Source of the DNA: Porphyridium purpureum
Lineage: Eukaryota
Length of the DNA stretch: 64,000 nt
Assembly: GCA_008690995.1 (NCBI GenBank)
Contig: VRMN01000001.1
Coordinates: 3,224,001-3,288,000 of the forward strand
Direction of reading: 5' to 3'
The stretch's first letter is position 1; every line of letters begins with the position of its first letter. Shown one piece after another: positions 1,940 through 49,333 of this stretch. Both the position numbers and the translations under genes were made by a program. Under the pieces are notes generated by a model. The model saw only the letters and a program-made list of their open reading frames with translations, ran no database searches and was not told where the DNA came from.

Positions 1940-4105
1940 GAGCTCCCAGCCGGCCAGCGGCGTGCTGCCCGGCGCGTCCCCCGCGCGACGCCAGCAAAGC
2001 GCCGAGCCGCTGGGCGACGTGCACCAGGGCCCCGTCTGATGTCGATGCCATCGCGTAACCGTCCGGCCCAGCTCTTGGTTTATCTGCCGCGCGGCTACGG
2101 TCTCGACACGACCACGCGTGCGCGTCCGCAGGCCAAGTTGTCGCGCCGCGCATTTCAAACGCGCGCGCGCGCGCGATCAAAAACTGTACTCAGAGGTACA
2201 GCTCGCGTTTGTGCGGGTCCATCACGGACGGGACGCGAGCCATGCTCGCTTGGCCTCGTTCATCTGGTGCGTCTTGAACCTCGAGCAACGCTCTTGCTGC
2301 GTTCATCGCATCAAACAAATACGCCGACGAGGCGTGTACCTGGGGCGTACGGTTGTCTGCGGTTTGGCACCCACGCAAATCGCGAGATCCCAGCCGGAAT
2401 GTTAGAGCCAGCCATACAACAGCTGCCGCGCTCTGTCCCCTCAGCGCCAGCAGCAGAAGCTCATAGCTACAGTCGCGTCGCCGGTACATCCTGGAGGTGA
2501 GTATTTTTAATTCTTGCTGAAACTTTATCAAAAAAAAATTCCTGAAAAAGAATGGTCAACGGACGACGGACATTATCTATGACCAGACCAACAGCCGGAC
2601 GCAAGAGAAAAGCGAACAGCGCCTCATGGTGCGTACATCGGCATGAGACGGAGAAAGTTTACACAAGAGGATTCGGGCAAATGAGCCTGCGTCGCTCCAG
2701 ACCTCCCTGTCCCGTGATGCAAATCATATAGACTTCACTACAGAGCTCGTTCCAGCCAGACCCCTGAGGCACCCCAATAGCGCACTCCACACCCACATAA
2801 GCGGAGCTGACGTCTGTGCACATGATGGACCCGAAACGCTTGCAAATTGTCCGCATGCGGTTTGCCGGGTCCGGGCGCAAACGATGCATGTTGCACGCTG
2901 CGAATGGATGTGCATCATGAGCGCTCGGTGCGCGCATATTACCCGGGACCTATAGCGGAGTATGCAAAGCCTTCTTTACGCACACATTCAAACCAAACAT
3001 GCACCGGAAATTCGCTGACGTGAAGCATGGATACCCATTCACACTTCTGCCACTTGCAGAGAAGGAACCAAAGGACCACGCAAAGTTGTACGCCAGGTCA
3101 TTCGTTTGGCAGCTACAGCTATCCACGCATGCGAGAGCGTGTAGCTCATCCAACGAGCCATGGCTTACTCCCGAAACGGAACTGTCACGCCGGCTCGCTT
3201 TCCGTCCGCGTCAATGAAGCTACCGCCCTTCGGATCGACGACCGCCACTGCTAGAGTCACGTTTCGAGGCTATGCCATGATGAACTGCAATTTATCCTCG
3301 CCCAGAGCTTTGTCAAATGCCGTCACACACGACTCAAACTGGCAGTGACGTGTGCATCACAATGCAGTCGTTTCCGGCGCAGTCCGACGATCATGGGGCC
3401 GGCTACTCATTTCCGGCTCTGGTGCCGACTCGTTGATCCTACCTTCCCGCAGCACATGCGCCGCGACGAGGTTTCCACAACCCGGCGGCTCTGGCCGAAC
3501 CTTTTGGTGCTTCGGAACCGGCTTGGCGGTCTGCATCCGTTTTTCTCCGCTCATGCCTTTGAGAAACATTGGCGATGAAGATACTGTGCACTAGCGCTTG
3601 GGAGGATCACCAGCGTCTGGAAAGAGTGAGCCGAATGGAATGCATGAACAAACCCCATCTTGGCACCCATGACATGTCTCGCTGAGAGGTGTTGTGGCCC
3701 CTGGTCGACCGCCAGACCGCCACGTTGAGCGGACACGAGAATGCAATCGTCACCGGCTGCGACAGCATCCGCGCACGCATGCGCATGAAAATGACGAACC
3801 ACGGCGTCGGTCGATTATTCGCCGGATATCACGGCTCTTCGACCGTGCCACGTTAGAACCTGCGCGTGCGCAAACCAACTGCCCCGCTCCTGGCGCGCCG
3901 ATGCCAAGCGCACGTGCCAGAATCAATGACAATCGCCAGTGTGCGGGAGTTGGACGAGGCCAGGACTTGCTCTCGGCTTCACGCACATCGAACCCAGCAA
4001 GGCCAAACCCCCAGAGGTACAGCTCTGTGTGCAGACTTTGGGCCTTTGCGGTGGAGATTGATCGCGTTCGACCGTGCGCGAACACGGTGGGGAGAGCGTT
4101 GCGGT

Positions 4106-4141
4106 AGCAGCAGCAGCAGCAGCGGCGGCGGCGGCGGCGGC
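4106..4141 (+). repeat. (AGC)n(GGC)n trinucleotide microsatellite directly before the ATG at 4142
   Basis: agcagcagcagcagcagcggcggcggcggcggcggc read directly. Confidence 0.85.
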
Positions 4142-6619
4142 ATGGCAGATGGTGCGAGTACTGTTGATTGGGACGGCCATATGAATATTGGTCAGCATGC
4201 TCTCGATGATGCGTCGCTGAAGTCGGCACACACGGCTCTCGAGAACGATGTTGTCCGCGCGTCGCGCCGCGACCATATCTCTGCCGCCGGACATGGCCAT
4301 GGCTATTTGCCGCATCTGGATGGCCTGCGCGCGCTCGCGCTGAGCGGCGTGCTAATGTTTCACTTTGGGCGCAGCGGATTCGGCGCAGGTGGGTTTATCG
4401 GCGTCGACATGTTTTTCGTCTTGTCGGGCTTTCTCGTCACGCGCAACATTCTGGACGATATTCTGCAGGACACCTTTTCGTTCCGCACCTTTTATCAGAG
4501 GAGATTTTGGCGGCTTTACCCGAGCTCGCTCTGTACAAGCGTTTGCGTGCTTGCTGCATCCATATACTTGCTTTCCGGCAATTTACTGAAAAGCTCGCTT
4601 CGATCAGTAGCTGCCAGCATGATATCGTTGTCGAATGTGCTTTTTTACTCAGAGGCCGGATATTGGGACACCGGGGCAGAGCTGAAGCCCCTTTTGCATA
4701 CGTGGTCCCTTTCGATTGAGGAACAGTTTTACTTCCTGTGGCCAGCCATGTTGACCCTGGTGGCGCGTGCTCCATTTCTCATAAATGTTCCACCAGCACG
4801 TAGGCTGTACGCTTGGGGTAGTATTTTTGGATTCTGCGCCGTGCTAGCATTTGCGTGGGCATGGCAATACGAAAGCGTCGATGCGTCCGGCGCCTTCTTT
4901 TTGCTTCCTGCCCGTGTGTATCAGTTTGCCCTTGGCGCCGGCCTGCTCGGTCTTTCAGAGCAATTGCAAAATCATAACGGACTACTCGTCGATATCGCGA
5001 GTATCTGTTCTGTGGCGACGTGCGTGGCGTCATTTTTCTATCTTGGACACGACACCGGGAATGGTTTCGAGTCCTCATCGCCCATCGCACAGCTCTTTTC
5101 AGGAATCAAGGCGCTTCCCACGCTGCTCGGAACCGCGCTGCTGATTTTGTTTCCGAGCTCCATTGTATGTCGGCTAGTCTTGTGCAATAGCTTCATGGCT
5201 CATGTTGGACGTGTTTCATACACTCTGTATCTCGTGCACTGGCCCATCCGCGTTTTCTTGGGCTTTGTGGCCACCACTATGCCCTTCGCACATGGCTGGC
5301 TGGACCACTGGTCGATCATGCTTGCACTCACAGCGGTCACGGGCATGGCGCAGTATATCCTTGTGGAAAAGCGCCTGAGGACACGCGAAGCTGTTCCATA
5401 CAAGTTCTGGCTTGGGATCGGATTCACTATGTGGTCCGCTTTCGCGGTGGTTCTCTGGGTGCTTTTTGTTGGTGATGTTTCGAGTGACCATCATGCAGGT
5501 GGTGTGCACACGCCGACACAGACGGGTATCAATAGCACGGTGTATGATGCACTGATTGCTCTGGAGCGCCCTGATGGAAGTAAGGAGTACATTCCCCGTG
5601 CATTTGTGAATGTGACGCGCCTTGCGTATCGTCAGTATCCAAACGGTCAGTTGACAGACGCTTTTCCACCTCCGAGATGGATGAATGATATGAATAATGA
5701 TACGGAGTGGGATATTGTTGCGAAGCTTATCGAGCGCGCATCACCAGTGCCCCTGAGACAACGGCTTTCGCCCAGGGACACTCTTATTCTGCTTCGAAAC
5801 TGGGGTTACATTTTCTTAACGAATGATATGCATTTTTGGTGGTGCGAAAAAAGCGGTATTGCAGCTGACATTTCAATTGGGGGCCTTTATCCGTGCGTGC
5901 TAGGAGACGCGTCCAAGGCACCGAGCGCGGTCATTATTGGTGACAGTGAAGTGTTTGCGCTCAAACCCGCACTTTCATTTGTCGGCAAGGAGCTGGGCGT
6001 GTCGATATGGTCGGTTAACAATGTGGCTTGCGTGATGGCCTTTGAGAGCCAGAAAGACATCCATACACCGGAATCGTACGACCCCAATCAGCCTTTGGAA
6101 AAGCAAGCTTGCAAGTTGCAAACTATCGCGGCACGAAAAGTCGTGGAATCGTTGCCGCGTGGAACCGTAGTTTTCTTGGACTTCCTGTCCAACGCCTGGG
6201 TACAATACTATCGGCAGGGCACGATCATGTATGCATCGGAGATTAATTATCTACGCAGCCTCGGTCTGCGAATTGTATTTATTGGCACCTTACCGTGGAA
6301 AAGAGGACCGGGTAGGTGCTTGCCAAACTTGAAGCCGCCTCGAACCGATTGCATCGAGCCCACAGGCCAGGAGTTCTACGATGACTATAAAGTCACGCGC
6401 GACTTCATCGAAAATGTCCTGAATCTGACATATGTGGACCTGGCCGATCCGTTTCGTGTGCACCCGGGGTCGGATGAAAATAATTTCACGTGGGCGGTGG
6501 ACGGATTTCCATTGCTCTTTGACGATAGACACGTGAACATAGCCGGCTCTCTGTACGCTTCGAATGTGATTGCCGACATGTACCGAGAGCATTTGCTCGG
6601 GCACGGAGCGAAAGAATAG
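4142..6619 (+). CDS. Acyltransferase-3 (OafA/OatA-like) membrane O-acyltransferase with C-terminal SGNH domain
   Basis: Motifs YLPHLDGLRALA, GFIGVDMFFVLSGFLVT, FYQRRFWRLYP and HTWSLSIEEQFY, many transmembrane segments, then SGNH motifs IIGDS and DDRH. First ATG in the frame is at 4142 (the ORF track starts at a GTG, 3866). Confidence 0.92.
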   Translation: MADGASTVDWDGHMNIGQHALDDASLKSAHTALENDVVRASRRDHISAAGHGHGYLPHLDGLRALALSGVLMFHFGRSGFGAGGFIGVDMFFVLSGFLVTRNILDDILQDTFSFRTFYQRRFWRLYPSSLCTSVCVLAASIYLLSGNLLKSSLRSVAASMISLSNVLFYSEAGYWDTGAELKPLLHTWSLSIEEQFYFLWPAMLTLVARAPFLINVPPARRLYAWGSIFGFCAVLAFAWAWQYESVDASGAFFLLPARVYQFALGAGLLGLSEQLQNHNGLLVDIASICSVATCVASFFYLGHDTGNGFESSSPIAQLFSGIKALPTLLGTALLILFPSSIVCRLVLCNSFMAHVGRVSYTLYLVHWPIRVFLGFVATTMPFAHGWLDHWSIMLALTAVTGMAQYILVEKRLRTREAVPYKFWLGIGFTMWSAFAVVLWVLFVGDVSSDHHAGGVHTPTQTGINSTVYDALIALERPDGSKEYIPRAFVNVTRLAYRQYPNGQLTDAFPPPRWMNDMNNDTEWDIVAKLIERASPVPLRQRLSPRDTLILLRNWGYIFLTNDMHFWWCEKSGIAADISIGGLYPCVLGDASKAPSAVIIGDSEVFALKPALSFVGKELGVSIWSVNNVACVMAFESQKDIHTPESYDPNQPLEKQACKLQTIAARKVVESLPRGTVVFLDFLSNAWVQYYRQGTIMYASEINYLRSLGLRIVFIGTLPWKRGPGRCLPNLKPPRTDCIEPTGQEFYDDYKVTRDFIENVLNLTYVDLADPFRVHPGSDENNFTWAVDGFPLLFDDRHVNIAGSLYASNVIADMYREHLLGHGAKE

Positions 6620-10005: not shown

Positions 10006-11493
10006 ATGGACGCGCGCGTAGCCTGGTTGACAGGGAGCCTGGCGAAACAGCAGGCACGGATGGCAAGCCGGAAGCGCTACTGGGTTCACAGGCGCACGCG
10101 CGATTGTATGAACCAGCAAGGCCCCTCCTCGTGCTGGAGGACAGAGAAGTCGGACAGAGCCAGGCAGGAACAGGACGGTGCTAAACCTTTCCCGGAAAAA
10201 AGTGGGCGCTCGCGTGCACACGTTGAGCCGCACGACGTCCACTCTGAACTGGCAAGCATGGCTGTATATTACCCGGCCCTCTTGGCAGCAACATCAAACC
10301 AGCCCCACCTTCACCCGGATATGACCGGCTGGGCTCGTTGGCCTCAACCAACGACAGGTGGACTCGATAGCGTTGACATTTCTCCGGAAGTCAACTCTTG
10401 GCGTCTGACGAAGGATTCAAGGGGGAGCGCAAAACTACCATCAGCTGCGATCACGGAATCAGCGGAGAGGTTACCGGGCGTCGCTGAAATTCTTTCCACC
10501 AGCGAGGATGTGATTTTCGTGGAGAGTGGCTCTAGTCAGGGCACCGCCTTTTGGCACCAAGCGGCCAGCTGGAGCCCATCGGCAGCTGTGCGCAAGTCGT
10601 CCTATTTTGGTGCTGACCGCTCGTTGCATGAACAGGTACGCACGGAGCAAGGTTTGAGTTCGAAGGAGAGGGCGCTACCAGCGCCTCTTCAGCACGTAGG
10701 GTCAGCGCCTGCTGCGCAACCCTACTCGGAACGACGGCGGAATCCAGTCCCTCTGAAACCAGAGGAAGGGGCCCCAGGTCCCGGGGTATTATCAGACAGC
10801 CTGCCTTTGGGTTCCAGCCATCATCGTCAGCCACGTGGGCTTGCTTCCGCATCGCAGTCAGTGGGAAATCGTGAACCTTTGATTGTGCAGCTCCAGGAAC
10901 TACGGCACCAAGCACAGCCGTTGGTGCAAGAGTTCCAAAAATCCGACTCCCATTCGGGACTTGGTCAAAGCATGCATGGCATCCTCGAGGGCTTCGGTAG
11001 ATCCGGTTTGAATCCAGAAAGACCCTCTCCACAACAGACAAGTACCGGCAACAGCGGCTCTGCGGAGGCGGGCGCAGCTAGTCGGTCACTCCTTGGCAGA
11101 CGCCAATATTCACGGCGGCAGTATTGGACACCGGAAGAGGACGAGCTGCTCCGTACGCTCGTCGCCTCTTTGGGACCGACTGATTGGCCCAGCTTGTCCG
11201 CCAAGATGCCTGGTCGCTCGAGCAAGCAGTGTCGCGAGCGCTGGCTCAATCATTTGCAGCCATCTGCACACAAGAGCGCGTGGACAGCAGAGGAGGATGC
11301 ACTCATTGCGCAGCTGCACAGCCAGCACGGCAACAAGTGGCGATTAATTGCGCAATATGTGCCCGGGCGGTCTGACAATGATATCAAGAACAGGTTTCAC
11401 GTGACGCTGCGCCGCCTGAAGAAGGAGCAGCGAGGAGAGTTTTCAGACCTGGATAGCGCGTTCATGGCCGAAAAGCGATCATCGTTTCAGTAA
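10006..11493 (+). CDS. R2R3-MYB transcription factor, copy 1 (start uncertain: ATG 10006 or 10258)
   Basis: Two MYB repeats: WTPEEDELLRTLV..W..GRSSKQCRERWLNHL and WTAEEDALIAQLHSQHGNKWRLIA..GRSDNDIKNRF. Confidence 0.93.
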   Translation: MDARVAWLTGSLAKQQARMASRKRYWVHRRTRDCMNQQGPSSCWRTEKSDRARQEQDGAKPFPEKSGRSRAHVEPHDVHSELASMAVYYPALLAATSNQPHLHPDMTGWARWPQPTTGGLDSVDISPEVNSWRLTKDSRGSAKLPSAAITESAERLPGVAEILSTSEDVIFVESGSSQGTAFWHQAASWSPSAAVRKSSYFGADRSLHEQVRTEQGLSSKERALPAPLQHVGSAPAAQPYSERRRNPVPLKPEEGAPGPGVLSDSLPLGSSHHRQPRGLASASQSVGNREPLIVQLQELRHQAQPLVQEFQKSDSHSGLGQSMHGILEGFGRSGLNPERPSPQQTSTGNSGSAEAGAASRSLLGRRQYSRRQYWTPEEDELLRTLVASLGPTDWPSLSAKMPGRSSKQCRERWLNHLQPSAHKSAWTAEEDALIAQLHSQHGNKWRLIAQYVPGRSDNDIKNRFHVTLRRLKKEQRGEFSDLDSAFMAEKRSSFQ

Positions 11494-13170: not shown

Positions 13171-14451
13171 ATGTCTGTCGTTGGAGCAATTATGGATATA
13201 CATCGTTTTGAAGGCCCGCATCGATTTACCAATGCCAGTGAACAGGCGCAGCTGATGTCCACACCGCCACTGGTGAATGCGCGTTTGCCGTTAGAGGGCA
13301 CGTACATGGGGAGGGATAGTGCAAGCGCGTCACCGTGGTTCCACGCGGAGTGCCGTGGGCGTGTCGAAAGTGACTTTCCGCCTTCCGCCAGTCCGCAGCC
13401 ATGGTCAAAGTCCATGCTTGGAAGTTCAGTGTCACTGGTATCCGAGCCGTCTGAGCGACGGGAGAAGTTGCCGAGCATCGCTGAACTGCTGGTTGAAGGC
13501 GAGCACGTCAAGTCTGGGCTCCACGACTTTGACGGCAGCTCCGCACTTTTGCGGAACTCGTTCAAATCTGCTGACGCGCGCACGCAGTCATCACGAGCAA
13601 GTCGCAATGCACACGGGCTGCCGCACATGGAGCCCGTGTTGGCTACGACTGATCATTCGCGGCCCGTGCTCACACAACGAGCGGGTAGAGTACCCGTTAT
13701 TCGGGCTTCGACAGACGTGGCTGGGCACTTGGTTCTTCAGCGACGACAGGAATACGTTCCTGCTGTGCATGACCCTATCCTCAGCCCCCTACAGACATTT
13801 GGGCTTTACAGGCAGTCATTCGCGGCCGCGAATCATGGGCATGCGAGTTCTCCGGTACCACAGATGCAGGGACGTCAGGAACAGTACAGACAACATCCAA
13901 CACCGCCAGGACGTCAGCCATCGATGCATGGAGGCTTAGGATCGAACGTTACGCCTATCCAGCCACCTACCACGTCCGGCACGGCTTCGAGCAGATCGCC
14001 TCGTCACCAGGCAAGTTCTGAGAACAGCAGCTCCTGGGAGGCTGGTAAAGCACATCAGGCGTCCCATGCACGACGCCCTTACTCACGACGGCAATACTGG
14101 ACGCCGGAAGAGGACGAGATGCTGCGTGTGCTTGTGGATTCAATGGGACCGGCTGATTGGCCCAATTTGTCCGCGAAAATGTCGGGCCGTACCAGCAAGC
14201 AGTGCCGCGAGCGCTGGTTAAACCACTTGCAGCCATCTACACACAAAAGCGCGTGGACAGCAGGGGAGGACGCACTGCTTGCGATAATGCACAGTCAACA
14301 CGGCAACAAATGGCGACTAATCTCGCAGCACATGCCAGGGCGGTCTGATAATGATATCAAGAATAGGTTCCATGTGACTCTACGTCGTCTGCACAGGCTG
14401 CAGCGAGCCGAAGTCTTAGACACAGAAAGCGCTTTTACGGCCGGAAACTGA
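13171..14451 (+). CDS. R2R3-MYB transcription factor, copy 2 (tandem paralogue)
   Basis: WTPEEDEMLRVLV..GRTSKQCRERWLNHL..WTAGEDALL..GRSDNDIKNRF; DNA-binding domain very similar to copy 1. Confidence 0.93.
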   Translation: MSVVGAIMDIHRFEGPHRFTNASEQAQLMSTPPLVNARLPLEGTYMGRDSASASPWFHAECRGRVESDFPPSASPQPWSKSMLGSSVSLVSEPSERREKLPSIAELLVEGEHVKSGLHDFDGSSALLRNSFKSADARTQSSRASRNAHGLPHMEPVLATTDHSRPVLTQRAGRVPVIRASTDVAGHLVLQRRQEYVPAVHDPILSPLQTFGLYRQSFAAANHGHASSPVPQMQGRQEQYRQHPTPPGRQPSMHGGLGSNVTPIQPPTTSGTASSRSPRHQASSENSSSWEAGKAHQASHARRPYSRRQYWTPEEDEMLRVLVDSMGPADWPNLSAKMSGRTSKQCRERWLNHLQPSTHKSAWTAGEDALLAIMHSQHGNKWRLISQHMPGRSDNDIKNRFHVTLRRLHRLQRAEVLDTESAFTAGN

Positions 14452-17585: not shown

Positions 17586-18203
17586 TCTTTGGCACGAAAA
17601 ACCCTGAACCCGATTCTCAAGCAGGAAACTAAAAGCCCAACGCACACCACGTGCGATACTCAACACCGTCTCAAGAAAGCGTGCGAGCCGTGATCTTTCC
17701 GCGTTTCCGGAATGAGTCGTTCCTCTTGATAAGCATCTAATACTTCAGCAACCTATTGCGCGTTGCTGCTCATCCCACGCCGGACCGTGTGCGCCTCTCT
17801 CCACTTCACCTAACCCGCGCTGTCCGATATCTAGACCATCCAGACGAATCGTCGTCCTTACTCCCACCCGCCTGTTCCCCTGTTTGTAGTACGCTCCGCT
17901 ACTTAACCCACCGAGCCTTTTAATAGCTGTTGCGGCTGCCGCTGCCACCCGTCTGCTTTTTCTATCAAAACAGCCCTGCGCAATCACAAACACGCACGCT
18001 CACCACCAGACGCTCGCGCGCTCTTCCCGCCCAGCCTTTTCTTGTTAATTCAGGAAAACGAGGTGTACACTAAGACTTGATGGGGGTACAGCCGTTAATA
18101 CAAAAAACCCGCCGAGTGATTCACCACGTCAGCGCGTATTCCCTCGAACGCACTGTACCGTGTCGCTCCTCCCACACGTCGCAGATTCTACTCAACATAC
18201 AAC

Positions 18204-18211
18204 TATATAAA
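18204..18211 (+). promoter_or_regulatory. TATA box of the permuted tRNA gene
   Basis: TATATAAA about 30 nt upstream of the leader needed for the BHB (18239 onward), followed by CAA motifs at about 18231-18237. Confidence 0.7.
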
Positions 18212-18249
18212 CGCTATTTTTTCCCTTCCACAAACAAATTTCACGGAGG

Positions 18250-18355
18250 AACGGTCGGCCGCAGTTCGATCCTTGCAGAAGGGGAGTTTCTGCGTATGGG
18301 CATAGAATCGTTTGATTACGCCCGTATGGCTTAGTGGTAGAGTTACCGTTTCGTA
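18250..18355 (+). tRNA. trnT-CGU: Circularly permuted tRNA-Thr(CGU): 3' half 18250-18302 (with T-loop intron 18271-18288), spacer 18303-18319, 5' half 18320-18355
   Basis: Reassembled 71-nt cloverleaf: GCCCGTA TG GCTT AGTGGTA GAGT T ACCGT TTCGTA|A ACGGT CGGC CGCAG TTCGAT|T CTGCG TATGGGC A. Acceptor stem 7 bp (one G-U), anticodon stem 5/5, T stem 5/5. G1-C72, C2-G71 and A73 fit tRNA-Thr. Confidence 0.92.
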
Positions 18356-18366
18356 CCTGAGAACTC

Positions 18367-18371
18367 TTTTT
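18367..18371 (+). terminator. RNA polymerase III terminator (T5)
   Basis: TTTTT 12 nt after the end of the 5' half, just beyond the BHB-forming trailer. Confidence 0.75.
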
Positions 18372-19851
18372 GCCGGTTGGAAAACATCACTGATCATGTC
18401 TCAATAATTCGCGAGACGATCTCCAACATGGCTCCGTAGCGACAAGCAAAATTGCATGCAGCGCAACTCGCTCCGTACAATGTGCTACGTTTCGCGGGCC
18501 GCGGCCTAACACTACAAAACTCAGTTTGTCTCTCACAGTCTGCGCGCGGGCGCTGCGATGCGACTGCAGATATGGTCTGCGACCGCGCACTGGGGGCGAA
18601 TTCAGCTAGGCCACGCGAGCTCAGCGCATATTCAAAATTTCGGTCCCCCCCAAGGCCAAGCTGTCACATGTCTTCAGGCCCATTCAGAATTGATTCTTGG
18701 TAGGGCCTGCTTGTGCAGTGTTTACTAGGTGGGCGTTGCGCATTTTGGACCAGCGGCATAAACAGGCGCAACCCGCGCGCACTGTCGAAAGAAAGAAAGA
18801 TGATGCTCGGAAGCCTTGTGTTCCTCGTGGCCAACCGCGGTCCGCGCTGTTAAATGAATGTTTCTTGCTCTCGTCTGCAAGGACCCTAGATCCTTGAAGC
18901 CTCGTCATGACCCCGCTGGCTGTTGCTGAGAAGAGCATACACACAGAATGCGAAAGCAAGGAATACTGAGCATCTGCTTGTCGTGTGTGCTCATTCCGCT
19001 ACCAAAGCAGTGGATGGCGATAAATGCTTTTGGACACACTGCAGCACGCCTGTTCGGAAGAGTAAGAGCCATGAGGGTGCGAAATGGACACAAAAAGTCG
19101 ACCATGGCATCGAGGAACCTTTCAGAAACCCCAAGCATGTTCGTTTACCTCCCGATTTGCCCCACTACTGACAGTCGGCATTAGTGTCCTGCCCCGCTGA
19201 TCTACCGAATTTGCATCTGCGCCGCCCATTCCATAGCGCGCGTGTCCTGACAGAGTCTGCGCATCTCGCCCAACTCTCTCTCGGCAGCCGCACAGCACGC
19301 GCCACAAGCCCGGCTTGGCCACTCGCACAGCGACTCCTGCTTGTTGCCATACCCGTCGCGCGCGATGAAGCGCGTCGTGCTTGTTCTTCCAGCTGACATC
19401 CGGATACGCTAGAAGCCTGTCGATGTTCGCATACGCCTTATACTGGTCCATACGCATGGCGCTCTGATTCCGTGAAGCTCCATGCCACGCACGCGGCGGT
19501 CACACCGACTCCATAAGTACACCGACCGGCACTGAACACCCATCTAGTAAACCACGAGCGTTTCACGAGACAAACACGGTGCGATTTAGCGTGCTGCTTC
19601 GTTTTGGTGCCGCGTCTGGCTCGAGACGCCGAACGTGCGACGCGTCGGTTTGCCAGCGGCTGCAAGCGGTGATGGCAGACGGAGACGCACATGTAAAAAG
19701 CGCATTCGCAGCTGCTTAAAGCAGCCATGGACGCAGCGTCTGCAGCCGCGCGTGGCAGTTCGGCTCTCCAAGTACATCGGCACGCGGTGAGAGCGACGCG
19801 CAGAAAGACCGGACAAGCGGCACAAATCCTGCAGCGGCACAGGCGGCAAGC

Positions 19852-20518: not shown

Positions 20519-21190
20519 TCATGCAGAACTGGCGGCAGCTCGCCACACGTCCAGATCGTCAGGAGTGTCCACATCCGGTAACATTTCCAGGAGCATGACC
20601 TTTAGTGCCATGGCGCGCGCCTTTTCCATCGTGGCACAAAAAACCGTGCTTGTGCTCCACTGAATTCCTTCAAACACGTTTCTATGCAGCTCTTGCATGC
20701 CTAGTAAATAGTAGCCGCCGTCCTTTGCGGGCCCAATCACGAGGTCGGCTTGCTCGCTCTCGAGCGCATGAAATGCGGCAGAGATATGTTTTTCCGCGCA
20801 CAGACCAGGCGCATCGGTGCCCACTACAAGAACGTGCGTCTGGTGAAGGTCATTGAATGCCTTCCGAAACGACGTCGCCATTTTTGCCCCGAGGTCTACT
20901 CCCGGACCAGAGCGCTGCGCCCCGAACATAACCGCGCGGCCGGAATGGAAGAACGGTCGCAGCCACGTGTCAAACCACTCGTGCGCGTGGTCGGCATCCG
21001 CACTGGCGTACTCAATCATTACCGTGATCCGCGGATTGCACCGATCGACGCGGCGAATGCAGTGCTCTGCCATCTGCCTGCTAGTTTCCGCAGCGCCATC
21101 CGCGCCCAGCGCCGGGATTAGTCGCGTCTTGGCAAAGCCAGGTTTGGGCTGTTTGACATACACAATCACACACGCCCTGCTTGTCGCCAT
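20519..21190 (-). CDS. DUF2064/TIGR04282-family transferase (annotated in bacteria as arsenosugar-biosynthesis glycosyltransferase; CofC-like fold)
   Basis: KQPKPGFAKTRLIPALG, DLGAKM, VVGTDAP, VIGPAKDGGYYLLGM, FEGIQWST and DVDTPDDL. Confidence 0.88.
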   Translation of the reverse strand: MATSRACVIVYVKQPKPGFAKTRLIPALGADGAAETSRQMAEHCIRRVDRCNPRITVMIEYASADADHAHEWFDTWLRPFFHSGRAVMFGAQRSGPGVDLGAKMATSFRKAFNDLHQTHVLVVGTDAPGLCAEKHISAAFHALESEQADLVIGPAKDGGYYLLGMQELHRNVFEGIQWSTSTVFCATMEKARAMALKVMLLEMLPDVDTPDDLDVWRAAASSA

Positions 21191-46924: not shown

Positions 46925-49333
46925 TCAGAAATCAATTGAGTCCAAGTCGAGGGATGCAGCGTGAGATTCGATGAATTCGCGTCGCGGCGCGACTTCGTCA
47001 CCCATTAGCAGCCTGAACAGCGCATCGGCGGCCGCTGCGTCGTCGACGGTGACTTGCTTCATGCGGCGGGAATCCGGGTTCATGGTGGTATCCCAGAGCT
47101 GCTGTGGCATCATCTCACCAAGTCCCTTGAAGCGCTGCACCGTCACGGTGGCTGGGTTAGCCTGCTTGTCTAGGTACGCTCGCAGCTCCGCCTCGTCAAA
47201 CAGAAAAGTTCCGCCGCCGGACTTACTGCCGCTCTTGCGCGTCACCTTGTACAGAGGTGGGCAGGCGATGTAAATGAAACCGTTTTCCAGAAGGGCGCGC
47301 TGGTAGCGGAAGAAAAACGTAAGGAGTAAAGTGCGAATGTGAGCACCGTCCACGTCTGCATCGCTCAAAATTACAATGCGATGGTAGCGCAGTTGGCTGA
47401 CGTCAAACGCTTCACCTCGAATGCCTAGACCAAGCGCAGAAATGAGCGCCTGAATCTCCGTGTTCCGGTAGATCCGGCCGTCTTCGGCCTTTTCAATGTT
47501 CAAAATTTTGCCTCGAAGTGGCAAAATGGCCTGGAAGAAGCGGTCCCGACCTTGTTTGGCGCTTCCACCCGCGCTGTCGCCTTCAACAATAAAAATTTCG
47601 GCTTCGGCCGGCTCGCGCGAAGAGCAATCTGCAAGTTTGCCCGGTAATGTGGACGATTCAAGCACGGTCTTCCGGCGCACCAGCTCTCGCGCATTGCGAG
47701 CGGCCTGCGCGGCGTCGAAGGCGTTCATGGCCTTTTCGTATACCTTGAAGAGCACCTGAGGCGACAACTCTACAAAATCCGCAAAACAGGTGCTCGTCAC
47801 CTTTTCTACAATCGAGCGCACCTCTGGATTGCCCAATTTGGTTTTCGTTTGCCCTTCAAATTCTGGGTCGGGCACCTTCACCGAAACCACCGCGGTCAAC
47901 CCTTCGCGGATGAATTCCCCACTCAGATTTGCCTGCTTTTCCTTGAGCTTGCCTAGCTTGCGAGCCATCGAGTTGAATGTGCGTGTTAAAGAAGTCTTGA
48001 ATCCGTCAATGTGAGTTCCTCCATCCACGGTCCGGATGTTGTTCGCAAAGCCAAGTACCAAGTCCGTGTAAGAATCTGCGCTCCATTGCAGCGTCATTTC
48101 AACCTGCACGTCATTCACTGTCTCGTTCATGTAGATCACTTCTTCGTGCAGTGCAGTCTTATTGCGGCACAAGTACGCACTGTATTCGCGAATCCCGCCT
48201 TCATACATGAAGATTTCTGTACGGGGCAGCTTTCCAGCCACCCCTGAGTCTGCGCGATTGGGGCGCGACTGCTCGGCAGGAGTTTCGTCATCGCCCTCAA
48301 GCGGTTCAGAGGCATTCGCGTTTGATATGTTTCCAGGCTTACGTTCATCTTTCAGCGTAATGCTGAGGCCGCCATTCAAGAATGCGAGCTGCCGGAGTCG
48401 CTCAGCGAGCATGTCAAAGTCGAATTCAGTGACTGACGTAAAAATCTTTGGGTCTGGTAAAAAGGTGACTTGAGTCCCGCAGCGCATAGGCGCATCGGAC
48501 TGAAAGTTCGACCCAGAGCCCGAGTCGAGGTCTGCTGGCAAGGCGGTCACCACGAGTTGCGATGTCGGCTTCCCGTAGGCAAACTCCATGGAGTACTCCA
48601 TGTTTTGCCGCCACACCGACACCTTCACGTAAGAGCTGAGTGCGTTGACCACACTGATGCCTACGCCATGTAATCCACCCGAGACCTTGTACCCTCCTTG
48701 CCCAAATTTTCCTCCCGCGTGCAGCACAGTCATAACTGTCTCGAGTGCCGACTTGCCCGTGCGTTGGTGCACATCAACGGGAATCCCGCGCCCATTGTCA
48801 CGTACCGTCACCGCACCATTTTCGCACAAAATCACAGAAACTTCGGTACAAAAGCCGGCTAGCGCTTCGTCCACCGCATTGTCCACTACCTCGTACACCA
48901 TGTGATGCAGGCCGCGCGATCCGGTGCTTCCGATGTACATGCCCGGTCGCTTTCGGACAGGCTCCAAACCTTCCAAGACCGTGATCATTTCCGCGCCGTA
49001 ACTCACATCCACTTTTGCTGCATTCGAATTCTTTGGCATTGCGCTGCCGTTCTGCTTCGTGGTACGGGCGTCGCCAGCCGCCATTCGCGGAATTGCGGCA
49101 GCCGGTGCGTCTGGCACTGGCTCAGCGGCAGTTTGCATGACCGTTGAACGTCTGACACGGCTACATGAAACGCCGCACTGCAAGAAAGACAAGGCTGTAT
49201 GTGTGCGGCCATCCACGCGGCGATTGGTGCGAAACAAGCGTTTCGGCGCGCTCATGTGGCGCGCCATTTCTCGCAGGGACTCGCTTCTCTCCACTCCATT
49301 ACCGCGGCACCCAGCACCCACTCCAACAAACAT
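46925..49333 (-). CDS. gyrB: DNA gyrase subunit B, organelle-targeted
   Basis: LEGLEPVRKRPGMYIG, GGLHGVG, EGDSAGG, PLRGKILN, DADVDG and QRFKGLGEM; N-terminal transit peptide starting MFVGVG. Confidence 0.97.
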   Translation of the reverse strand: MFVGVGAGCRGNGVERSESLREMARHMSAPKRLFRTNRRVDGRTHTALSFLQCGVSCSRVRRSTVMQTAAEPVPDAPAAAIPRMAAGDARTTKQNGSAMPKNSNAAKVDVSYGAEMITVLEGLEPVRKRPGMYIGSTGSRGLHHMVYEVVDNAVDEALAGFCTEVSVILCENGAVTVRDNGRGIPVDVHQRTGKSALETVMTVLHAGGKFGQGGYKVSGGLHGVGISVVNALSSYVKVSVWRQNMEYSMEFAYGKPTSQLVVTALPADLDSGSGSNFQSDAPMRCGTQVTFLPDPKIFTSVTEFDFDMLAERLRQLAFLNGGLSITLKDERKPGNISNANASEPLEGDDETPAEQSRPNRADSGVAGKLPRTEIFMYEGGIREYSAYLCRNKTALHEEVIYMNETVNDVQVEMTLQWSADSYTDLVLGFANNIRTVDGGTHIDGFKTSLTRTFNSMARKLGKLKEKQANLSGEFIREGLTAVVSVKVPDPEFEGQTKTKLGNPEVRSIVEKVTSTCFADFVELSPQVLFKVYEKAMNAFDAAQAARNARELVRRKTVLESSTLPGKLADCSSREPAEAEIFIVEGDSAGGSAKQGRDRFFQAILPLRGKILNIEKAEDGRIYRNTEIQALISALGLGIRGEAFDVSQLRYHRIVILSDADVDGAHIRTLLLTFFFRYQRALLENGFIYIACPPLYKVTRKSGSKSGGGTFLFDEAELRAYLDKQANPATVTVQRFKGLGEMMPQQLWDTTMNPDSRRMKQVTVDDAAAADALFRLLMGDEVAPRREFIESHAASLDLDSIDF

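Follow-up and report, generated by a model that had tools for sequence, protein, structure and literature searches.

Can a locus in which the two halves of a tRNA stand in reverse order, and in which the T-loop carries 18 extra nucleotides, be a working gene, and how would its RNA be matured? The question is raised by positions 18250-18355 of the stretch of DNA analysed here ("the window"), 64,000 nucleotides of contig VRMN01000001.1 from the red alga Porphyridium purpureum. This locus is, with high probability, a circularly permuted nuclear tRNA-Thr(CGU) gene, broken at 37/38 (type II) and carrying a putative intron at 59/60 in the T-loop. Features lie on the forward (+) strand unless stated otherwise.

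Layout and recognition of the permuted gene

The 3' half comes first. Its exon 1 (18250-18270, positions 38-59, with A38 at 18250) contains the 3' strand of the anticodon stem, a 4-nt variable loop, the 5' strand of the T-stem and the letters TTCGAT. The 18-nt insert (18271-18288), likely an intron at 59/60, has to be removed before ARAGORN calls a tRNA; it is followed by exon 2 (18289-18302, positions 60-73), with the 3' strands of the T-stem and acceptor stem and the discriminator A73 at 18302. A 17-nt intervening sequence with a small internal hairpin (18303-18319) closes the acceptor stem, and the 5' half (18320-18355, positions 1-37) extends from G1 at 18320 to A37 at 18355, with the anticodon CGT at 18352-18354. 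In folding of the precursor, the acceptor pairs around the spacer have a probability of 0.96-1.0. A 3' half upstream of the 5' half, with an acceptor-closing spacer between them, is the arrangement of type II permutation.

Signals for transcription flank the halves and are absent between them, again as in type II genes. Upstream lies a TATA box, TATATAAA (18204-18211), likely an RNA polymerase III promoter and the only + strand match to TATATA[AT] in the window (the - strand has three); downstream, a T5 run (18367-18371) is likely the polymerase III terminator. Two CAA motifs (18231-18237) likely mark the region of the transcription start. In plant tRNA genes, initiation takes place at the A of the CAA motif. 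CAA has been described as the plant tRNA start motif (bioRxiv 10.1101/2021.12.21.473619), and an upstream TATA-like box is reported for C. merolae tRNA genes (PMC3728597, PMC3978253). Diverging from the same palindromic TATA, the - strand at 18100-18185 has a 7-bp hairpin with a loop that starts with TTCGA, and then a T6 run. This hairpin is not a tRNA; its folding z-score is -0.82, and it has no Rfam match.

The native window yields no tRNA by ARAGORN and no Rfam match at this locus. When the halves were joined (18355 to 18250) and the insert was removed, ARAGORN with default settings called a tRNA-Thr(CGT) in which all four stems pair and which measures 71 nt, A73 included; when the halves were joined and the insert was kept, default settings gave no call and the -ps90 option gave only a mis-paired "possible pseudogene". 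Removal of the insert thus restores a canonical cloverleaf (one gene versus none with default settings), which is the property of a non-canonical intron. A relaxed ARAGORN scan of the window returned 81 calls, which we regard as noise, and folding z-scores were not significant (-1.26 and -1.38). A generic layout scan of both strands (T-arm with an insert of 0-60 nt, acceptor hairpin, D-arm) matched the window once, at 18250-18355, so that the window has no second permuted tRNA of the same layout; the same scan had no match on either strand of 200 Markov controls of 64 kb each with the same dinucleotide make-up. We also considered a tRNA-Tyr(GUA) and rejected it: a 9-nt loop would be required, U33 is absent, and the G1-C72 pair is unfit for a eukaryotic tRNA-Tyr, whose identity rule it breaks.

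Structure of the two junctions

The preliminary description had the T-stem (18260-18264 paired with 18290-18294) enclosing TTCGAT, the 18 nt and a T, and had a 7-nt loop, TTCGATT, restored by deleting 18271-18288; the sequence agrees with both statements. The junction was then examined in nine registers under the BHB rule that the cut falls after the second base in each 3-nt bulge. It follows from this rule that an intron at n/n+1 requires base n-6 to pair with n+2, which for the T-stem gives n = 59, a site equivalent to 37/38 of the anticodon arm. Of the nine registers, 59/60 alone has all five outer pairs together with 3/4 central and 3/4 inner ones. Its central pairs are U-G, U-A and C-G, and in the fourth place G57 faces a G. 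With three of four central pairs, the strict hBHBh' motif (a 4-bp central helix and two 3-nt bulges) is not formed; a relaxed motif (hBH/BHL or weaker) is, with an intact outer helix, a 3-nt 3' bulge, a 3-bp central helix and an inner hairpin.

That the insert "folds as" a relaxed BHB, as previously claimed, is right in so far as the geometry is possible, and overstated in that it is not the predicted fold. The central-helix pairs have a folding probability of about 0.02, the minimum-energy fold (-11.7 kcal/mol) lacks the central helix, and a competing hairpin between the insert and the 3' strand of the T-stem has a probability of about 0.6 in the full precursor. The BHB as first drawn has an energy of -6.0 kcal/mol, and the best BHB-like structure, with a CCUU/AAGG inner hairpin, -9.2 kcal/mol. 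The CUU/AAG inner hairpin proposed earlier leaves G18282 unpaired and has to be redrawn for the strict geometry, which is C18272-G18282 followed by U-G and U-A. Three central pairs alone occur in 23-31% of random inserts. When the exon context is fixed, 2.7% of shuffled inserts and 1.4% of window 18-mers reach at least three central plus at least four inner pairs, by a criterion set post hoc with the insert already seen. Given the weak BHB and these chance rates, the fold backs an intron modestly. Judged from the sequence, 18271-18288 is likely a true intron spliced at 59/60. A spliceosomal intron was rejected, the 18-nt insert being without GT-AG ends.

The 37/38 junction is framed by a leader strand (18239-18249), with its outer helix at 18239-18243, its central helix at 18244-18247 and a GG bulge preceding A38, and by a trailer (18356-18366), of which 18358-18362 pairs with the leader and closes the BHB. 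All four central pairs are available, and the outer helix has 5/5 pairs with a one-base shift, which makes the 5' bulge 4 nt instead of 3 nt. The outer-helix pairs have probabilities of 0.8-0.99, and the central helix is absent from the predicted minimum-energy fold. A BHB-like motif built by leader and trailer at 37/38 is a further feature of type II genes.

The start of the insert (18271-18280) resembles the start of the trailer (18356-18363), with eight matches and two gaps over 10 versus 8 bases; in a single post-hoc test, 0.3% of window 10-mers scored as high. Both junctions also pair against one exon word, TTCG. Because the insert begins like the 37/38 trailer, the sequence hints that the T-loop intron may be a copy of an old anticodon intron (transposition), or else the likeness is due to chance; we regard this as a lead. 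Copying of anticodon introns has been reported for Thermoproteales (PMC4090602). If the copy reading is true, the locus would be a eukaryotic case of tRNA intron transposition.

Transcripts, rival explanations and maturation

Neither a spliced nor a circular joint was found in eight of 24 listed RNA runs, seven of the eight of which are contig sets and one a raw-read set without depth over 18224-18304 (X24: 19 reads on an 801-base stretch, none of them across that interval). Three contigs span the insert and retain it (X1, X6, X15), two start within it (X3, X17) and two stop short of it (X5, X18). Since seven of the eight runs are contig sets and the raw reads miss the 3' half, the missing joints are no evidence against splicing. 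Six short exon motifs were absent from the supplement (nine files) of a miRNA study on P. purpureum (PMC4981961). The libraries are ill-suited to tRNA.

Contigs from three runs in three studies end at 18232, 18232 and 18236, on the CAA motifs and 28-32 bases below the TATA box. This is a weak hint of the start of a sense precursor, as RNA starts are not readable from contigs. Two of these contigs, from two studies (X1, X6), have 18-20 extra A ahead of 18232 on the + strand, and the third (X15) starts at 18236 with two clipped letters. The extra A could be due to start-site slippage on CAAAT (non-templated 5' oligo(A)), to a template switch of reverse transcriptase onto poly(A), or to an A-tract of the strain. 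At the other side of the gene, contig X5 ends in T20 at 18377, apparently the poly(A) tail of a minus-strand RNA that runs towards the tRNA gene and ends just beyond its terminator; the longer contigs may therefore be antisense read-through. The minus-strand RNA is well covered from 18377 to at least 19300 and convergent with the tRNA gene. Its region has short open reading frames only (the longest fully inside encodes 111 aa, 19122-19457), and the RNA could be non-coding or represent a long 3' UTR. The loose end of X5 beyond 17866, 21 letters that begin like a box D/C-type motif (TGATGA), is probably a chimera or adapter.

Could the locus be a decayed permuted tRNA pseudogene, its 18 nt an inactivating insertion that is never excised, with another tRNA-Thr reading ACG? 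We consider this improbable. The weak BHB would suit such a pseudogene, and ACG decoding by wobble is possible, as Thr(UGU) can read this codon, but four stems, the invariant bases, the TATA box and the terminator are all intact, and the published P. purpureum list contains no conventional tRNA-Thr. Insertions in the D- and T-arms mark pseudogenes in most eukaryotic tRNA genes (PMC4090602), and every contig that spans the insert retains it, although such contigs are explicable by the convergent minus-strand RNA or by precursor. Strain differences speak in the same direction as the intact stems: none is listed in 18232-18375 versus 14 sites in 18376-18700 (up to two more per contig were counted without being listed), a contrast that falls short of significance in each run (P(0) 0.31 and 0.23), the insert alone giving no power. 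We rejected a pooled conservation test (P 0.004-0.014) for its bias, since the run with the greatest divergence covers only part of the gene.

Two further explanations accept a functional tRNA. A real intron cut at other sites is quite unlikely. A 58/59 junction yields the same mature product as 59/60, as the preliminary description had held and the ARAGORN test bore out; it retains 3/4 central pairs, and T-loop introns of Chondrus are reported at 58/59 (bioRxiv 10.1101/2021.12.21.473619), but here its outer helix is broken (3/5 pairs, non-contiguous). An alternative overlooked earlier is a cut at 60/61, which gives a different product with C60 and an ARAGORN-valid loop, TTCGATC; with 1/4 central and 2/5 outer pairs, this register fails the BHB geometry, and 59/60 leaves the T-stem whole. 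It is hardly credible that the insert is simply tolerated, the tRNA working with a T-loop of 25 nt once the join at 37/38, and no other, is made. The T-stem does form around the insert in the isolated arm (probability 0.8-1.0), but the enlarged loop would break the elbow of T-loop and D-loop, which RNase P, tRNase Z and the ribosome require. Moreover, Pus4 of C. merolae leaves U55 unmodified while a T-arm intron is present (PMC9602550), and comparable inserts are excised in C. merolae (PMC3728597) and Chondrus (bioRxiv 10.1101/2021.12.21.473619).

For a permuted Thr(CGU) precursor with a 59/60 intron, the order and steps of processing can probably be read from C. merolae by analogy. Polymerase III would be recruited by the TATA box, because the A and B boxes inside the gene stand in reverse order and the insert interrupts the B box; the transcript would be about 140 nt long. 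Removal of the T-loop intron would probably come first, the T-stem and the 7-nt loop mimicking the anticodon-stem geometry at 37/38. Leader and trailer would next be cut at the 37/38 BHB, with ligation of A37 to A38 giving a circle, and RNase P and tRNase Z would then open the 17-nt acceptor loop before addition of CCA. In C. merolae, the circular intermediate of tRNA-Gly(CCC) is already without its T-loop intron and the 37/38 motif is cut last in a comparison of three tRNAs (PMC3728597); opening of the circle by RNase P and tRNase Z precedes CCA addition (PMC3978253). The modelled energy gain is -5.1 kcal/mol for the T-loop motif and -3.4 kcal/mol for the 37/38 motif, and the larger gain of the former agrees with T-loop-first under Soma's rule. 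The earlier proposal of two splicing events plus end processing, with cleavage directed by local BHB-like structure, thus finds support by analogy in the tRNA-Gly(CCC) precedent.

The same cannot be said of the archaeal-like endonuclease that the preliminary description took to be implied. C. merolae does the same job with eukaryotic homologs of Sen2, Sen34 and Sen54, the set reported in PMC3728597 with no recognisable Sen15, which by analogy argues against an archaeal-type enzyme in this alga. The cutter would be the host tRNA-splicing endonuclease reading a relaxed BHB, probably of the eukaryotic Sen2/Sen34/Sen54 type with relaxed position control. BHB substrates can be cleaved by eukaryotic endonucleases (PMC10485636, PMC4090602). 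The heterotetramer of yeast and human is described as removing pre-tRNA introns at 37/38 only (PMC10485636), so that a different reading mode would be needed for the T-loop cut; according to the same source, a two-subunit endonuclease is possible in many non-Amorphea eukaryotes. The locus therefore offers a second substrate and host for a question raised in reviews, namely which eukaryotic endonuclease architecture cuts outside 37/38 (PMC10485636).

Relation to other red-algal tRNA genes and genomic setting

Is such a gene needed? The tRNAscan-SE list for P. purpureum in Table S4d of PMC10496412 has 30 rows, two of them undetermined, and none for Thr, Asn, Asp, Cys, His or Trp. In 19 open reading frames of the window, ACG is the commonest Thr codon (214/580). 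A list without tRNA-Thr, together with this usage of ACG, means that a hidden tRNA-Thr is needed in P. purpureum, as in C. merolae, and the gap favours a working gene at this locus. Many entries of the same list have lengths of 100-220 nt or carry a pseudogene flag (PMC10496412 Table S4d), which suggests many further non-canonical introns. The permuted Thr(CGU) gene would account for some of what the list lacks, and further hidden genes are to be expected from it; we find it fairly likely that Porphyridium, as a second lineage of red algae, has a hidden tRNA set in the style of C. merolae.

The combination of a permuted gene with a T-loop intron has been known since 2013, and the only earlier report of it within the literature searched is tRNA-Gly of C. 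merolae. The two tRNA-Gly(CCC) genes of that alga are permuted at 37/38 and have a T-loop intron, with proof by RT-PCR (PMC3728597, PMC3978253 Table 1). Like them, the present locus is permuted at 37/38 (type II) and has a weak BHB, a short intron within the part of the 3' half that encodes the T-loop, a TATA box upstream and a T-run downstream. It differs in the site and length of the intron (59/60 and 18 nt here; 55/56 and 13 nt with a "no h" motif there), in the spacer (17 nt versus 7 nt), and in isotype and host, Thr in Porphyridium versus Gly in the thermoacidophilic Cyanidiophyceae (C. merolae). Processing is proven for the C. merolae genes and deduced for ours. C. merolae is known to splice weak motifs, "no H" included, one of them at +1.15 kcal/mol (PMC3728597). 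Its Thr(CGT) gene has the same anticodon and is also permuted at 37/38, without an intron and with a spacer of 31 nt, as compared by table entry (PMC3978253 Table 1).

Other systems share single features. Chondrus crispus has nuclear T-loop introns at essentially the same site (58/59 versus 59/60), and splicing of the one in tRNA-Trp is proven; the Chondrus numbering is one base off, both registers being equivalent in product here, and its tRNA genes with T-loop introns are not permuted (bioRxiv 10.1101/2021.12.21.473619). A 2026 review (PMC13578239), in the available part of its text, gives Chondrus as having no permuted tRNA genes and leaves Porphyridium unmentioned. Archaeal non-canonical introns also use 59/60 for BHB-directed cleavage (PMC3978253, PMC4090602), where the enzymes are symmetric EndA types. 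Type IV permuted tRNAs are cut at 59/60 as well (Ala, Arg and Lys in C. merolae; iMet and Tyr in Thermofilum pendens; PMC3978253); in those genes 59/60 is the permutation junction, whereas here it is the site of a putative internal intron. None of the permuted genes in Table 1 of PMC3978253 has a 59/60 intron.

In the literature searched, which was scant on subscription journals, neither permuted tRNAs nor tRNAs with T-loop introns were described from Porphyridium, and permuted red-algal tRNAs were reported from C. merolae only. What is new is thus the lineage, the isotype (Thr) and the 59/60 intron site, and the layout of a permuted gene with a T-loop intron would not be peculiar to the hot-spring Cyanidiophyceae. 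A metagenome pattern scan for an orthologue of the insert-bearing gene gave none: all 24 matches were attributable to chance, and none was in a tRNA context.

With permutation of Thr(CGU) at 37/38 common to both algae, it can be tested concretely whether the layout is ancient or arose repeatedly. The two genes may be one that goes back to the red-algal ancestor and has since been un-permuted or replaced on several occasions, which we regard as rather doubtful; the T-loop intron would then have been acquired afterwards, perhaps as a copy of the former anticodon intron. Ordinary Thr(CGT) genes of 72-74 nt are present in Galdieria, Chondrus, Gracilaria and Gracilariopsis (PMC10496412); with such genes in four other red algae, independent permutation is no less likely than common descent.

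The genes that neighbour the locus are intron-poor and eukaryotic, for example Myb, UTP20, SNF2 and IspG. Among the matches listed, the best named one for the window IspG is from Porphyridium aerugineum (76% identity), followed by other red algae. The 120 matches listed, many of them without a name, include no separate protein named as P. purpureum, while the proteins of the window are themselves present in NCBI and eukprot. In a tree of 16 IspG proteins, the window protein falls within red algae (support 100/100) and is nearest to P. aerugineum by path, a pairing that lacks support of its own. Two Myb-domain genes stand in tandem (10006-11493 and 13171-14451, + strand). The window also contains three genes of bacterial type: an acyltransferase-3/SGNH fusion (3926-6619, + strand), a DUF2064/CofC-like gene (20519-21190, - strand) and DNA gyrase B (46925-49333, - strand).
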